From Escherichia phage PC3: a stretch of 64,000 nucleotides of DNA. The DNA lies in the sequence record ON184125. One strand, given 5' to 3'. The first letter of the stretch is position 1, and the number at the start of each line of letters is the position of its first letter. Under the pieces are notes generated by a model. The model ran no database searches, was not told the DNA's origin, and saw only the letters and a program-made list of their open reading frames with translations. Made by a program: the position numbers and the translations under genes. This document shows, piece by piece, positions 10,451 through 45,076 of this stretch.

Positions 10451-10467
10451 CTTATAGCTGTAAAACT

Positions 10468-10492
10468 AAGGCCCCAAATGGGGCCTTTTCTT
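10468..10492 (+). terminator. Rho-independent terminator after TSP4
   Basis: aaggcccc-aaat-ggggcctt plus T-run; same downstream tail as the 7916 terminator. Confidence 0.6.
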
Positions 10493-10860
10493 ATATAGAA
10501 TTTACTGTTTGCATTACCCTAACCGATACTGCTGTTAAGGTTATTACTTGCCCAGAGATATTAAACATACCCAATTGAATACCTTCTACCATGAAAGGGT
10601 CTGTCGAACCAAGTTTGTAAGTGGCTAATACGTTATCTCTGTTGGCAATGTCTGTACCCTGTACCTTAACACTAGCATCTGAACCTACTACTGTGGTTCC
10701 ATTGGTTCGCCTTGTTTGCGTTCTCCATTCCCTGGCTGTACCAGCACCCCTGCAATAGTTCCTGAAGAATGCGGAGGTCTTGAATCCATGACCATAACCA
10801 CAGAAAGATAATCAAAGCCCCTTCGGGCTTATTTCTTTCTATTCCTCGGTTGGTTGTATA

Positions 10861-10868
10861 CTAAATAT
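10861..10868 (+). promoter_or_regulatory. Putative late promoter (CTAAATAT)
   Basis: ~35 nt upstream of the 1612-aa gene. Confidence 0.4.
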
Positions 10869-10901
10869 CTCTATAATGGCACCTATCGATGGAGCATCAA
10901 A

Positions 10902-39522: not shown

Positions 39523-41031
39523 ATGGCAGACATTCAGATTGTTAAGGTTAACGAAGTCCGCATGCGTTGCATCGCAGATCTTTCTATCAGGGAAGAACTT
39601 AATGACTACTTCAAATTCGAAGACCCGAACTTCGTTCCCAACCCCTTCTCTAAATGGGACGGGGTTGTCCGCCTATTTACCAAGTCATCTGGTCTAATCG
39701 ATATCGGTCTGCTGTTTGAGGTATTTAAGTTCTGTAAGAACAACGGATACACCATTGAACTGGATCCGGCACTGAAGTACATTCAGGACATCCCAGATGA
39801 AGAAATCCGTGAATTCATCGACAGTCTGCATCCAAAGATCCGTACCGAAAATCACGAATATATCGATGCCGAGACTCGTGACTACCAGTACGACACCATC
39901 GCCAAGGCTATGCGTCAAACCAGATGCGTCTGTGAACTGGCTACGAGTGCCGGTAAGTCCTTTATTCTGTATGTCATGGCGCGGTACTACAGGCGGCGCA
40001 GAGAAGCTCTCGAAAGTCCTCTGAAGACGCTTATCGTGGTGCCGTCAATCCACCTAGTCACTCAGCTGTACGACAACTTCGAAGAGTATGCGCATGGCAG
40101 TGATTGGAAGCCCGTTGTTAACACCCAGCTGATTTTTGAGGGCGCGACAAAGGAGATCAGCAAACCAATCGTCATCAGCACATGGCAAGGCATTCAAGAC
40201 CAGCCGAAGGAATGGTTCCACCAGTTCGGTGATATCGTGGTGGATGAAGTGCACACCTCCAAGTCTGAGAAACTGTCTTACATCCTAAACAACTGCATCT
40301 ATGCCGACCAGCGCCTGGGGGTTACAGGTACGCTGGCGAATACCAAAGTTGCCGGGCTTCAGGTGGTGGCTCACTTCGGGGCGTACCATAAGATCATCAC
40401 GGCTCGCGATCTCATCAATCTCGGGTACGCCACTGACATCAAAGTGAAGATGATTCAGCTGAAGCACACTCCGGCGGATGCTGTTGGTCTGGACGGGGAT
40501 TATTCCAAGGAAATAGAATACCTCATTACACACCAGTCCCGCAACGAACTGATCGCCAAGATGGCACTGAATCTGAAAGGAAACGTGGCCATCATGTTCG
40601 AGCGTATTGATGGTCACATGATGGTCGTGTATGATATGCTGAGCGCAGTCAAGCCCAACGTGTTTGTCATCAACGGGGAAGTGAAGATCGAAGACCGCCG
40701 CCGCATACAGAAAGCGATGGAGGATGGAGAGGACATCACCCTGTTGGCATCATACGGGACAATGCAGCAGGGAGTGTCGATCAAGAAGCTACACCACCTT
40801 GTACTGGCACACCCGAGCAAGTCATATATCCGCGTCATACAGACATTGGGTCGTCTGATGCGTCAGCACTCCTCTAAGGACGTCGCGTGGATATGGGACT
40901 TAGTGGATGATGCATCGTACAACGCCAGCACGAACCACACTCTTAGGCACTCTCACGAGCGTTACAAGTTTTACCTGGCAGAGCGCCACCCCGTGGAGTT
41001 CATGAAGGTGGCGCTGGGTAATCACGATTAA
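39523..41031 (+). CDS. uvsW: UvsW-like SF2 DNA helicase
   Basis: ELATSAGKS Walker A, VVDEVH DExH box, helicase C-terminal motifs; CTAAATA upstream, consistent with late expression of T4 uvsW. Confidence 0.8.
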   Translation: MADIQIVKVNEVRMRCIADLSIREELNDYFKFEDPNFVPNPFSKWDGVVRLFTKSSGLIDIGLLFEVFKFCKNNGYTIELDPALKYIQDIPDEEIREFIDSLHPKIRTENHEYIDAETRDYQYDTIAKAMRQTRCVCELATSAGKSFILYVMARYYRRRREALESPLKTLIVVPSIHLVTQLYDNFEEYAHGSDWKPVVNTQLIFEGATKEISKPIVISTWQGIQDQPKEWFHQFGDIVVDEVHTSKSEKLSYILNNCIYADQRLGVTGTLANTKVAGLQVVAHFGAYHKIITARDLINLGYATDIKVKMIQLKHTPADAVGLDGDYSKEIEYLITHQSRNELIAKMALNLKGNVAIMFERIDGHMMVVYDMLSAVKPNVFVINGEVKIEDRRRIQKAMEDGEDITLLASYGTMQQGVSIKKLHHLVLAHPSKSYIRVIQTLGRLMRQHSSKDVAWIWDLVDDASYNASTNHTLRHSHERYKFYLAERHPVEFMKVALGNHD

Positions 41032-41399
41032 TCTTGATTCACATAGGCGGGGGTGGCCTCGCCTTCATCAGCTACTACACCGAACAATTTGTCCAGAGAA
41101 GCCAGACATTGTGCGTTCAGGTGTTCACTGATCGTATCCTTCAGCATTTGTTCGCTGTTCAATTGGAATGGCAGAACCTTCGCTTCGATGCCGTTTTCAA
41201 ACGTCACAACGCCAACATACAGACCAACTTTCAGACCTGTCATCAAGCCAAGGGGGACAAATCGCGGCTCCGATGGTAAGTGCTTGTCTGACGCCAGCTG
41301 TGTCAGATAAACTGGGGTGCCTGTGATAAATTGACCTGTGGTGAGGTTGGCGTCTGGCTTACTACACCCGACTGCGTATAATCCTACGAACTGTTTCAT
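41028..41399 (-). CDS. Hypothetical protein (123 aa)
   Basis: Minus-strand ORF convergent with uvsW. Confidence 0.4.
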   Translation of the reverse strand: MKQFVGLYAVGCSKPDANLTTGQFITGTPVYLTQLASDKHLPSEPRFVPLGLMTGLKVGLYVGVVTFENGIEAKVLPFQLNSEQMLKDTISEHLNAQCLASLDKLFGVVADEGEATPAYVNQD

Positions 41400-41531
41400 A
41401 TATTACTCTCGTGTGTTGGTTAACATGACATACATATTATTTCGCGTGCATGTTTAGACCAAATAAATTATTTTTGCTGTTGAATAAAAACTGCTTTCTT
41501 GTTGAACAATGGCGTGGTATTATACGAGTTG

Positions 41532-41574
41532 TGAGCGAAGCGAACAACGAGTATTTGTTTTATGAGCGAAGCGA
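41532..41574. repeat. Direct repeat gagcgaagcgaa (two copies)
   Basis: Two copies about 30 bp apart in the same intergenic region. Confidence 0.5.
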
Positions 41575-41581
41575 ATAGGAT

Positions 41582-41627
41582 TAATAAAGATTATTATCTT
41601 TAATAAAGGTTATTATCTTTAATAAAG
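41582..41627. repeat. Tandem ~19-bp AT-rich repeats (TAATAAAG-Rttattatctt), iteron-like
   Basis: TAATAAAG occurs three times at regular spacing in the 360-bp intergenic region upstream of gp45. Confidence 0.55.
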
Positions 41628-41759
41628 TCCATAAATGCCGAAGGCATTTATTAATAACGCGTAGCGCAATTTGCCACTTGTTCTATAAGCAAAACACAGC
41701 GATACTAGATTGCGTCAAACATGACTTGAACCCCCACTATATTTTGAGGATACATACAA

Positions 41760-42428
41760 ATGCAAGAGATCACTCTCTCCGAACGTACACTTCAGTTGCT
41801 GGCCAACTTTGAGACCATCAACCCATCTATCGTTCTGACACCGGGCAAGATGCTGCGCAGTATTAATGATTCTTCTACTGTGATCGCCGTGGCGCAGATC
41901 GAAGAAGACTTCCCGTTTGAGTTCCCGATTCTGGACCTGACCAAACTTCTGGCCATCCAGCGCCTACCTTCCTTCAAAGGTGCCAAAGCCGAATTCCATC
42001 AGGACTACATCCTGTTGAAAGGCGAAAGCTCTCAGCTGCAATTCTGGCGTTCTGCTAAAGAACTCACGGTTGTCCCGGCTGATACTATTGAACTGCCGTC
42101 TGTCGACTTTGAAGCGATCATCACTCCAGAGAAGATGAAAGAACTGACCCGCGCCTGTTCTACCCTCGGACACAAGACTGTGCGCCTGGTTGCTCAGGGT
42201 GGCAAAACTCGCCTGGTTGCAACCACCACTACCCTGGACAACTCCAACAACTACACTGTTGAGCTGGGCGAAACCGCGCTGCCGGACTTCGTAATGCCAC
42301 TGGATGTTGCCAACCTGAAAATGATCGAAGGCAACTACACTCTGCGTGCATGTGCTGATCTACAAATGGTGAACTTCCAATCATCCGACGCGACGATCAA
42401 TTACTTCGTCGGCGCGCAGATTGAGTAA
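41760..42428 (+). CDS. gp45: Sliding clamp gp45
   Basis: LLANFETINPSIVL matches T4 gp45 LLKNFATINSGIML; 222 aa; gagga SD. Confidence 0.85.
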   Translation: MQEITLSERTLQLLANFETINPSIVLTPGKMLRSINDSSTVIAVAQIEEDFPFEFPILDLTKLLAIQRLPSFKGAKAEFHQDYILLKGESSQLQFWRSAKELTVVPADTIELPSVDFEAIITPEKMKELTRACSTLGHKTVRLVAQGGKTRLVATTTTLDNSNNYTVELGETALPDFVMPLDVANLKMIEGNYTLRACADLQMVNFQSSDATINYFVGAQIE

Positions 42429-42509
42429 TCAATCTCCAGCCTGATGCTATAATGTGTGGGCGGGGGAGTTCCCCGCCTATTTGAAATGATTCTTCTACAC
42501 GAGGCTGAA

Positions 42510-43166
42510 ATGAGGAACCAACCGTTTGTATATCATTTGTTAGGGAAGGATGGTTCTTTCTATTTTGGTTCTAGAACGAAATTGGGTGCACATCCTTTAC
42601 AATTGTTCACTTCATATTTCACTTCTTCACAAACAGTCAAGGAAATCATATCTAAGAAAGGTTCTGATTTCTTTGATGTAGAATTCGTAGAACTGTTTGA
42701 CTCCCCAGAAGAAGCATATTGGAGAGAGCAGCAGTTGATTAGTGAGAACATTGATCACCCAAAATGTTTAAACAAATCATTTCAGCCACTGGGTTGTGGT
42801 ATCGCCAACGGTAGGTCAGCGGGACCCAAACATCACCGAGTTGGTGTCTCGAGTTGGTTGAAGGGTAAGTCTGGGAATCTTCATCCCATGCACGGAAGAA
42901 CTGGTAAAAGTCACCCCGCCGCAGGAATAAAACCTTGGGACACCGGGGCTGCGCTGCTACACAACACCAGACCGATGTGGTTAAAGGCTGGGGTAGTGTA
43001 TGATCACTGGGTTTCTACTGGTGATGGGTGCCATAGAATTGCCCGTTTGTTCTCTATCAAAGAGAACACCGTAACGAGTATGTTAAACAAATTCAAAGAG
43101 GGCTGGAACCCGTATGATGACGACGCTTGGGTTCTGTTCTGTAAACTATATCATGGAAATACATAA
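42510..43166 (+). CDS. GIY-YIG homing endonuclease (Seg-like) with NUMOD-like C-terminal repeats
   Basis: VYHLLGKDGSFYFGSRT...EEAYWREQQLI GIY-YIG core; inserted between gp45 and gp44. Confidence 0.75.
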   Translation: MRNQPFVYHLLGKDGSFYFGSRTKLGAHPLQLFTSYFTSSQTVKEIISKKGSDFFDVEFVELFDSPEEAYWREQQLISENIDHPKCLNKSFQPLGCGIANGRSAGPKHHRVGVSSWLKGKSGNLHPMHGRTGKSHPAAGIKPWDTGAALLHNTRPMWLKAGVVYDHWVSTGDGCHRIARLFSIKENTVTSMLNKFKEGWNPYDDDAWVLFCKLYHGNT

Positions 43167-44611: not shown

Positions 44612-45076
44612 ATGGCGCGTAATACGCTAGACATATTGAATATTTCAGCAGTCAACGATGAGGCCAGCATCGTTGATTGTATGGTTGAAGTTCAATTGAA
44701 CCAAGATCGGCCAGGTATATTCCTGGGGATCAAGGAAACACTGAGTCGAATTGGGGTAAACACGCGCCAAGAGCCGAATACTCTGTATCAGACTTGCCAT
44801 ATTCTTCATAAGTGTGGCAAGTATTATATCGTCCACTTTAAGCATCTATTTATGCTGGACGGGCATTACAACGGATTTAACCGCGAAGATGTCCTGAGGA
44901 TGAACCGAATCATCAAGCTGCTGGAGCAGTGGAACATGGTGAAGGTCATTCATCCTGAGCAGGTCACCGAAGCAGCCGATATGTCTCGCATTAAAGTGGT
45001 TAAACACGATCAGGTTCCTGAATGGAAACTGGTTCCAAAATACATCATCCGGCCTACGAAGGCAAAAAGCGAATAA
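44612..45076 (+). CDS. regA: Translational repressor RegA
   Basis: LYQTCHILHKCGKYYIVHFKHLFMLDG and EWKLVPKY match T4 RegA; start may be an internal Met. Confidence 0.85.
   Translation: MARNTLDILNISAVNDEASIVDCMVEVQLNQDRPGIFLGIKETLSRIGVNTRQEPNTLYQTCHILHKCGKYYIVHFKHLFMLDGHYNGFNREDVLRMNRIIKLLEQWNMVKVIHPEQVTEAADMSRIKVVKHDQVPEWKLVPKYIIRPTKAKSE

Follow-up and report, generated by a model that had tools for sequence, protein, structure and literature searches.

The spacer upstream of gp45 and its hairpin module

The 64,000-nucleotide stretch of Escherichia phage PC3 analyzed here (ON184125; hereafter the window) carries at positions 41400-41759 a 360-bp spacer between a minus-strand gene (41028-41399) and the gene for the sliding clamp gp45 (41760-42428). 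The window is base-for-base identical to Escherichia phage PH4 (ON184126.1; Ackermannviridae, Aglimvirinae) with equal coordinates, and positions past it, such as those around 151 kb, refer to the 155.9-kb PH4 genome. A preliminary description of this DNA had noted in the spacer two copies of a 12-mer, a tandem array and a hairpin, and had read the repeats as iterons suggestive of a replication origin or a regulator-binding array. Our analysis confirms the repeats and the hairpin and partly supports the interpretation: the spacer is best explained as a family-wide divergent control region, with a core hairpin module that makes sense on the plus strand only. Read from left to right, the region would comprise a leftward promoter, a rightward promoter-like element, four hairpins (H1 to H4) and the gp45 leader with its ribosome-binding site.

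The spacer is AT-rich, as had been described, with a GC content of 33.6% against 48.2% for the window and a subtract at 41578-41660 that falls to 24%. The accompanying claim that it is the longest non-coding stretch of the window holds by greedy tiling of open reading frames (ORFs) and fails by the GenBank annotation, in which 10451-10901 spans 451 bp. All 360 bp align in 273 phage records from Agtrevirus, Limestonevirus, Kuttervirus and Taipeivirus, and in the same search Miltonvirus (Serratia phage Kevin) aligned over just about one third of the spacer. Identity between PH4 and Salmonella phage Vi01 is 78.7% for the spacer, 76.4% for gp45 DNA and 58.5% for the left gene, and the corresponding values for Klebsiella phage KpS110 are 69.6%, 74.7% and 56.8%. 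Because single-base indels separate close relatives, the spacer is non-coding, and two small ORFs within it (41450-41578, 42 aa; 41678-41812, 44 aa) were rejected as both are broken by such 1-nt indels. Conservation on a par with gp45 DNA, together with indels that exclude coding, therefore indicates that the spacer is selected as nucleic acid.

The core of the module consists of two hairpins, H1 and H2, whose tips are the two copies of gagcgaagcgaa and which share the plan Y-GA-GC-loop-GC-GA-R. H1 (41522-41554, plus strand; AUAC-GA-GUUGU-GA-GC-GAA-GC-GA-ACAAC-GA-GUAU), with the first gagcgaagcgaa at 41533-41544, has three stems with two tandem G·A internal loops between them, and the single-sequence fold of the PH4 element gives exactly this structure (-10.7 kcal/mol, z = -3.55; minus strand -7.0). 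Among 17 distinct sequences, standard pairs fill all 187 of the 187 cells at the 11 paired positions, as compared with 24-63% of cells in a control with the partner slid. Compensatory changes occur at 4 of the 11 pairs (A-U/C-G, A-U/U-A, and C-G/U-A twice), and a further pair alternates between U-A and U·G; since the opposite strand would have a mismatch in place of the wobble, this variation fits the plus strand only. In Miltonvirus the middle stem is longer by 3 nt on both arms, and the loop varies across the family (GAA, GGA, GUUA, GUCA, GAUA, UUU) while the G·A steps are unchanged throughout. A covariance model of H1 (R1) finds exactly two sites in the 155.9-kb PH4 genome.

H2 (41557-41581, plus strand; GUUUUAU-GA-GC-GAA-GC-GA-AUAGGAU) holds the second gagcgaagcgaa at 41564-41575 and repeats the plan of the H1 tip in its core, Y-GA-GC-GNA-GC-GA-R. 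Folding recovers this hairpin at -4.2 kcal/mol (z = -1.9). Apart from the loop, which is GAA or GUA, the core does not vary; the pair flanking the G·A motif changes from U-A in the PH4 group to C-G in other genera, and the lower stem is weakly conserved. The whole H1-H4 segment folds at -35.3 kcal/mol (z = -4.16).

These hairpins change how the 12-mers are to be read. The 12-mer GAGCGAAGCGA does have two exact copies in the window, at 41533 and 41564, and no third; the copies are nonetheless the apical parts of two covarying hairpins and not duplex binding sites, as they had been taken to be. The first copy reads GAGCTTTGCGAG, GAGTGTTAACGA or GAGCGTTAGCGA in relatives, with compensatory changes and a change in length, and G·A is retained on both arms in all genomes compared. 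Since a duplex palindrome needs no such GA on both arms of one strand, this arrangement points to a hairpin.

The tandem array (41581-41627, plus strand) was likewise recovered, with a period of 19, 2.5 copies, 96% matches and a score of 87 in Tandem Repeats Finder; it stands far above chance, in that the unit at up to 3 mismatches is confined to this array within the 64 kb where 0.01 were expected. Its copy number is 1.5 in Ag3, LIMEstone1, AV101 and fGh-Ecl02, 2.5 in PH4 and RPN242, and 3.5 in A221, and it varies across these values even among phages 97-98% identical over the 1.6-kb locus, a group to which Ag3, LIMEstone1 and fGh-Ecl02 are more distant. The array is missing in related genera, where the preliminary description had asked for conservation: Kuttervirus carries another AT hairpin (UAAUAAA..UUUAUUA), Taipeivirus a gap (KpS110 and May) or another AT-rich sequence (IME250), and Miltonvirus an unrelated AT-rich sequence. 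The ancestral 1.5-copy form already folds into an AT-only hairpin, H3 (AAAGAU-UAUU-AUCUUU), whose G·U variants pair on the plus strand only. The array in PH4 is thus a lineage-specific slippage duplication of H3, and the iteron reading does not hold for a unit that varies from 1.5 to 3.5 copies and is absent from Kuttervirus, Taipeivirus and Miltonvirus.

The hairpin of the preliminary description is H4 (41631-41651), a terminator-like stem of 9 pairs, 3 of them G-C, that reads AUAAAUGCC-GAA-GGCAUUUAU (ATAAATGCC-GAA-GGCATTTAT). As RNA it folds at -8.8 kcal/mol on the plus strand (z = -3.95) and at -9.3 on the minus strand. Of the features of a Rho-independent terminator, the plus strand offers the stem followed by the tail UAAUAA (UAAUAACG) with a weak U-run; the minus strand is followed by GGACUUUAUU, with T at 5 of the 8 following bases, and it is on this strand that a terminator scan calls H4 terminator-like. 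Aglimvirinae and Kuttervirus have the same stem, although the loop differs (GAA replaced by UCA and an adjoining G), and a stem without variation yields no covariation. Taipeivirus has a different AT palindrome in its place.

A second cassette and look-alikes elsewhere

A pattern scan of viral contigs first brought up a paralogous cassette as a second match in the same genomes. This locus B (ON184126.1 151065-151417; L210 4066-4418, beyond the window) lies between a minus-strand gene of unknown function and a gp6-like baseplate wedge gene, at a major switch of gene orientation, and is found in 270 phage records, nearly invariant across genera. It shares with the gp45 spacer (locus A) the order of an ATGTTTA..GACCAA block, an A-tract box TAAAAACTRCTTTYCT, a TAnnnT hexamer 32 nt on (TATCCT in locus B), H1, H2, an AT-rich stretch and ACGCGCG..TTT. 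The preliminary description had leaned on the position of the repeats at the head of a replication-gene cluster, and this logic falls because the paralogous cassette sits upstream of a late structural baseplate gene and not of a replication gene. The gene to the left of the spacer is not paralogous to the gene to the left of locus B.

The two loci differ in detail. Between H1 and H2, locus B is longer by about 48 nt, which fold into two GC-rich hairpins whose pairs vary as C-G/U-A and G·U, the G·U variants pairing on the plus strand only. In Kuttervirus and PH4 the H2 tip of locus B is replaced by a longer GC stem with the G·A frame retained. H1 lies 13 nt further from the promoter-like element than in locus A, and the start predicted near 151220 would fall 5 nt before H1, with no overlap conflict. 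The AT tract is just ~20 bp, the palindrome TTGTTGAACAA of locus A is absent, and the late gene that follows is preceded by a CTAAATA late promoter of its own. In locus B an ORF of 26 codons was rejected (broken by an indel, its ATG lost in Taipeivirus), as was a closing helix from the 5' end to the ACGCGCG block, which is not kept in Taipeivirus or Agtrevirus. No tRNA was found at locus A or B, the nearest tRNAs lying 2.3 kb from locus B; 3 kb of the PH4 genome without annotated features (ON184126.1 147480-150494; L210 481-3495) hold, by ARAGORN, tRNA-Ser(GCT) and tRNA-Met(CAT) on the minus strand. Locus B of PH4 is 94-95% identical to that of Kuttervirus (Salmonella phages) and ~78% to that of Agtrevirus/Limestonevirus, opposite to the pattern at the gp45 locus, which suggests from sequence comparison that PH4 is a mosaic produced by recombination around its baseplate and tail-spike genes.

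Searches of RNA families gave no match close to threshold. In Rfam 15, locus A reached no family at the gathering threshold (best MIR2617, 17.9 bits against 46.5, and GA-cis, 13.9 against 34.7), and neither did locus B (best anti-hemB, 14.6 against 49.5 bits); bacterial H1 look-alikes also had no near-threshold match. A dispersed repeat was discarded as an explanation, the 11-mer, the 19-mer and H1 being restricted to this spacer and locus B. With the H1 model, H1 is absent from Vibrio phages that are Ackermannviridae-like; retrieval of loci by gp45 gave nothing between 79% and 27% identity, and scans of metagenomes and viral contigs for distant homologues yielded mostly chance matches. One distant, Ackermannviridae-like phage, Vibrio phage D532, has upstream of its gp45 (L058 1300-1345) two small GNA-loop hairpins, TTGCGAAGCAA and GAGCGGAGCG, which the H1 model does not match and which may be a remote analogue of the cassette.

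Environmental bacteria also carry the H1 core, in which stems and G·A steps match those of the phages and the tip varies (consensus CGAGTTGTGAGCG-N-AGCGAACAACGAG). These cores sit within GC-rich inverted-repeat elements (ccctctcccc..ggggagaggg) and come from metagenomes (L089, L103, L120, L141, L169) and from a metagenome-assembled genome of uncultured Alphaproteobacteria (L211 2006-2033), and an identical 27-nt H1 core was found in repeats of uncultured Alphaproteobacteria. A total of 185,579 reference genomes gave just 1 match to the H1-like core. Homology, transfer or convergence may each account for the bacterial cores.

Promoter-like elements, the gp45 leader and neighboring genes

Two candidate promoters diverge from the left half of the spacer. 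For the left gene we infer from the sequence a leftward promoter of sigma-70 type (41434-41462, minus strand) with -35 TTGGTC (41462->41457), 17 nt, and -10 TAATAT (41439->41434). The block that contains it, GTTTAGACCAA, shows no change in 10 genomes that represent five family lineages, and the -10 remains TAnnAT-like in other genera; a consensus promoter scan missed this candidate, whose -35 matches at 3 of 6 positions. The candidate rightward promoter (41483-41523, plus strand) is made of an A-tract or UP-like box, AATAAAAACTGCTTTCT (41483-41499), and a -10-like TATTAT (41518-41523) exactly 32 nt on, and the 11-bp palindrome TTGTTGAACAA (41499-41509) falls within its spacer. Aglimvirinae, Kuttervirus, Taipeivirus, Miltonvirus and locus B all retain the box and the 32 nt to a TAnnnT hexamer, a fixed spacing that would suit a promoter whose -35 is weak and whose UP-like element is proximal. 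Its rightward direction is proposed because the A-tract box lies upstream, as the hexamer alone fits both strands.

Other promoter classes were considered and set aside. A phage class TTGAAC-N10-TAnnAT has 9 matches against 4.6 expected, a number equalled by 6 of 100 shuffles, and TTGAAC is absent from locus B. A T4-like late promoter was dismissed too, the motif CTAAATA(C) being absent from the spacer and present downstream of locus B. This motif is enriched upstream of structural genes across the PH4 genome (for example at 2621, 5455, 17372, 25939 and 29480 of the window) and is probably, to judge from that placement, the late-promoter motif of the family. A recurrent sigma-70-like -10 in PH4 reads GTATAATTCT, often with TTCAATAA ~12-14 nt upstream, and a third copy of the A-tract box, AAACTACTTTT, lies at about 92040-92120 of ON184126.1 (minus strand) between PH4_000109 and PH4_000110, followed by GACCAAGCGGAGCGCGAA and no H1.

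Downstream of H4, the gp45 leader and translation-initiation region (41652-41759, plus strand) consists of near-invariant alignment columns, with blocks at 41657-41672 (ACGCG..TTT), 41675-41689 (CACTTGTTCTATAAG) and 41699-41754 (GCGATACTAGATTGCGTCAAACATGACTTGAACCCCCACTATATTTTGAGGATAC), a Shine-Dalgarno GAGG at 41746-41749 and the ATG at 41760. By analogy with T4 biology, and given the RegA homologue encoded at 44612-45076, a RegA operator over the gp45 start codon is possible. Between H4 and the start codon, reading of the sequence and a promoter scan gave no other convincing gp45 promoter.

On the far side of gp45, the gene order is a PH4-specific homing endonuclease, gp44, gp62 and RegA. The endonuclease gene (42486-43166), which matches PHROG homing-endonuclease families and weakly the GIY-YIG enzyme SegE, is inserted between gp45 and gp44, which are directly adjacent in Ag3, Vi01, KpS110 and others. 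In LIMEstone1 (L002 1-1132), the uvsW gene beside the spacer is interrupted by an HNH endonuclease gene (I-LimI). The left gene (minus strand) overlaps the 3' end of the gene for a UvsW-type helicase and encodes a 123-aa product of phrog_4255 (function unknown). It was dropped as a clue to function, having no Pfam match, a PHROG of unknown function and an AlphaFold model (pLDDT 79) without a fold match in the PDB. A C-terminal region of its product, ..D.LFG...DEGEATPAYVNQD, is invariant; the LDKLFG stretch resembles the clamp-binding tails of T4 gp43, gp33 and gp55, and one UniRef entry names a homologue 'clamp loader subunit'.

What the module may do

The reading that we favor, at a little short of an even chance, is that the rightward promoter drives a short structured RNA running from H1 to H4. 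Host RNA polymerase would initiate rightward at the conserved promoter and produce an almost fully folded non-coding transcript of ~125-135 nt. At H4 this transcript could terminate, leaving a small RNA, or pause; with read-through it would become a structured 5' leader for the operon of clamp and clamp loader, and locus B would yield a sister RNA upstream of the baseplate genes. The hairpins framed by G·A steps would then be the functional surface, a binding or stability element for polymerase, a nuclease or a phage protein. We favor this RNA reading because the module lies 3' of the promoter-like element and its G·U wobbles fit the plus strand only, and because the multi-hairpin architecture of locus B is RNA-like and followed by terminator-like 3' structures. 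Promoters, transcription, RNA ends and any function are here deduced from the DNA, whereas what is observed comprises the repeats, the covarying hairpins, the conservation, a paralogue and a copy number that varies.

Several observations weigh against the RNA reading. The rightward -35 region, TTTCTT, is a poor match (Miltonvirus has TTGGAC there), and the hexamer TATTAT reads as a perfect TATAAT on the minus strand. In locus A this hexamer also overlaps stem a of H1, such that a start ~7 nt downstream (near 41530) would lose the 5' arm of H1 despite the covariation for the full hairpin; if the predicted elements are right, the transcript of locus A must start further upstream or at G41528, or else H1 works as DNA. 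RNAalifold does not call H2, the U-tract of H4 on the plus strand is weak, and H4 is not kept in Taipeivirus or Miltonvirus. The tips GCGAAGC, GCGTTAGC and GCGGAGC are moreover classic DNA mini-hairpins, far stabler as DNA than as RNA (PMC13037366). Lastly, the searchable literature contains neither a transcriptome nor an origin map for the family; the review of these phages and the genome papers that could be searched give in-silico promoter predictions only and report no mapped origin and no non-coding RNA.

The rival that survives best, although we consider it unlikely, is an origin that works through an R-loop or DNA hairpins. Transcription to the right would leave a persistent RNA-DNA hybrid and displace the plus strand, which folds into H1 and H2 beside the AT-rich tract; the hairpins would hold the bubble open, helicase and primase would be loaded, and the two cassettes would be two origins. 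In both loci a promoter-like element is indeed followed by an AT-rich tract (24% GC at 41578-41660 in locus A, only ~20 bp in locus B), and a DNA hairpin dissolves the conflict of H1 with the -10 and the start site in locus A. The layout, with the A-tract box, 32 nt, TAnnnT, H1, H2 and then the 24% GC tract, resembles that of the T4 origins oriF (uvsY) and oriG (gene 34), where a promoter precedes an AT-rich unwindable tract, and more than one such site per genome is plausible; for the module, promoter activity and direction are predictions. T4 UvsW unwinds origin R-loops, and the phage has a T4-type replisome with UvsW encoded adjacent. T4, however, uses MotA-dependent middle promoters without conserved G·A hairpins, and no MotA box (TGCTT 11-13 bp upstream of the -10) is found here: TGCTTTC lies 19 nt from TATTAT, and TGCTT is not kept in Kuttervirus or Taipeivirus. 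The setting of locus B at a major switch of gene orientation would suit an origin, whereas cumulative GC skew, which merely tracks gene orientation and was discarded as an origin signal, shows no inflection at 41.5 kb, and the searchable literature holds no mapped origin for the family.

The hairpins themselves speak on both sides of the origin reading. Every G·A step lies in a Y-GA-R context, which favors sheared G·A pairs in DNA. The H1 and H2 tips of PH4 are both GCGAAGC, and relatives carry GCGTTAGC, GCGGAGC or GCGTAGC, all of which match DNA mini-hairpins (PMC13037366); GCGTTAGC is the sequence of St-1/alpha3 and GCGGAGC that of N4. Mini-hairpins of the type GCGNAGC/GCGNNAGC are reported in the primase-dependent complementary-strand origins of G4, St-1 and alpha3, in ssiA of RSF1010 and in the hairpin early promoters of N4 (Hirao review, PMC13037366). 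Against this, the H1 tip of Kuttervirus and Taipeivirus is GCTTTGC, which is no mini-hairpin sequence, and H1 with DNA parameters, which model no mini-hairpin or G·A bonuses, reaches only -4.4 kcal/mol (z = -1.8). The G·U (G·T) pairs that are conserved, like the insert of several GC-rich hairpins in locus B, also have the look of RNA. In the known mini-hairpin systems the template is single-stranded or a virion RNA polymerase takes part, and this double-stranded T4-like phage is not known to have such a polymerase; here, unlike there, the tip caps a longer stem that covaries and carries tandem G·A loops.

A site for antitermination or RNA protection, on the logic of lambda nut or HK022 put, seems to us quite improbable. 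By itself or together with a phage factor, the module would modify RNA polymerase, which would then pass H4 and reach gp45, gp44 and gp62, or it would shield the 5' end from RNase E. Like lambda nutL/nutR and HK022 putL/putR it exists in two copies per genome, each a promoter-proximal hairpin module 3' of a promoter-like element and 5' of terminator-like hairpins, and like put RNA, as generally known, it has two hairpins with conserved internal loops. H1 of locus B starts 5 nt from the predicted 5' end, the geometry of 5' stabilizers, and the lack of another convincing gp45 promoter downstream of H4 would also fit. There is, on the other hand, no sequence similarity to nut or put, no boxA-like element conserved in both loci and no N-like protein identified, and both copies here lie on the same strand. 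Locus B precedes a late gene with its own CTAAATA promoter, so early read-through is not obviously wanted there, and in locus A the predicted start would truncate H1.

It is very unlikely that H1 and the palindromes serve as operators bound in duplex form by a dimeric DNA-binding protein that regulates the two divergent promoters. The candidates would be TTGTTGAACAA and the long inverted repeat ATACGAGTTGTGAGC..GCGAACAACGAGTAT; at the candidate rightward promoter, inverted repeats do overlap both the -10 and the +1, and TTGTTGAACAA is invariant in 4 of the 5 lineages sampled (Agtrevirus, Limestonevirus, Kuttervirus, Taipeivirus). As half-sites, however, the H1 arms disagree in every genome at 4 positions, always the same ones (GA against TC), their changes are pairwise compensatory, and H1 of locus B sits 13 nt further from the promoter; TTGTTGAACAA is missing from locus B and its remaining genomic matches are at scattered positions.

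Least tenable of all, to the point of being hardly credible, is the original view of the 19-bp units and 12-mers as duplex sites for an initiator or regulator in an iteron origin or operator array, for although PH4 has direct repeats of ~19 bp beside an AT-rich tract, as do the iteron origins of plasmids and lambda ori, and its 12-mers lie 31 bp apart, roughly three helical turns, an iteron origin would typically have at least three direct repeats of 17-22 bp, constant in number and phasing among relatives, whereas the array ranges from 1.5 to 3.5 copies among 97-98% identical phages and is missing in three genera whose spacer is otherwise retained, the repeats can fold into hairpins of their own, the first 12-mer varies compensatorily and in length as fits a hairpin tip and not a duplex site, the G·A asymmetry of the arms is strictly retained, and no Rep-like gene is annotated or was detected among the neighbors examined (UvsW helicase, the unknown 123-aa protein, gp45, the homing endonuclease, gp44/62). 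What stands of the earlier suggestion of an origin or regulator site is thus a functional, conserved non-coding element, and what falls is that its repeats are iterons.

Among repeated elements of T4-related phages, the PeSL (promoter-early stem-loop) cassettes, reportedly described by Arbiol, Comeau and Krisch in 2010 from T4-type phages, are said to occur in many copies, with a stem-loop upstream of an early promoter and variable ORFs between them. The module resembles them as a repeated combination of promoter and stem-loop in intergenic regions; it differs in having exactly two copies in 155.9 kb, hairpins 3' of the promoter-like element, and core genes at its flanks. With Rfam empty, the iteron, MotA-origin and PeSL features lacking, and the mini-hairpin motif present in some genera only, we assign the element to no named family and place it with the conserved structured promoter-proximal elements of phages.

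More specifically, and tentatively, H1 and H2 may constitute an undescribed two-copy, family-universal module, a strand-specific single-stranded element that starts two early transcription units, either as the hairpin or primer of an R-loop origin or as an RNA that reprograms or protects host transcription. If so, the identical alphaproteobacterial 27-nt H1 core would point to a module recognized by a widely conserved bacterial enzyme. The 19-bp repeat is a hypervariable slippage product that could serve strain typing and is no functional array. Phage therapy and biocontrol make wide use of Ackermannviridae (ViI, CBA120, LIMEstone, Agtrevirus), and for these phages the covarying two-copy module offers a testable handle on the early transcription of replication genes or on the start of replication.

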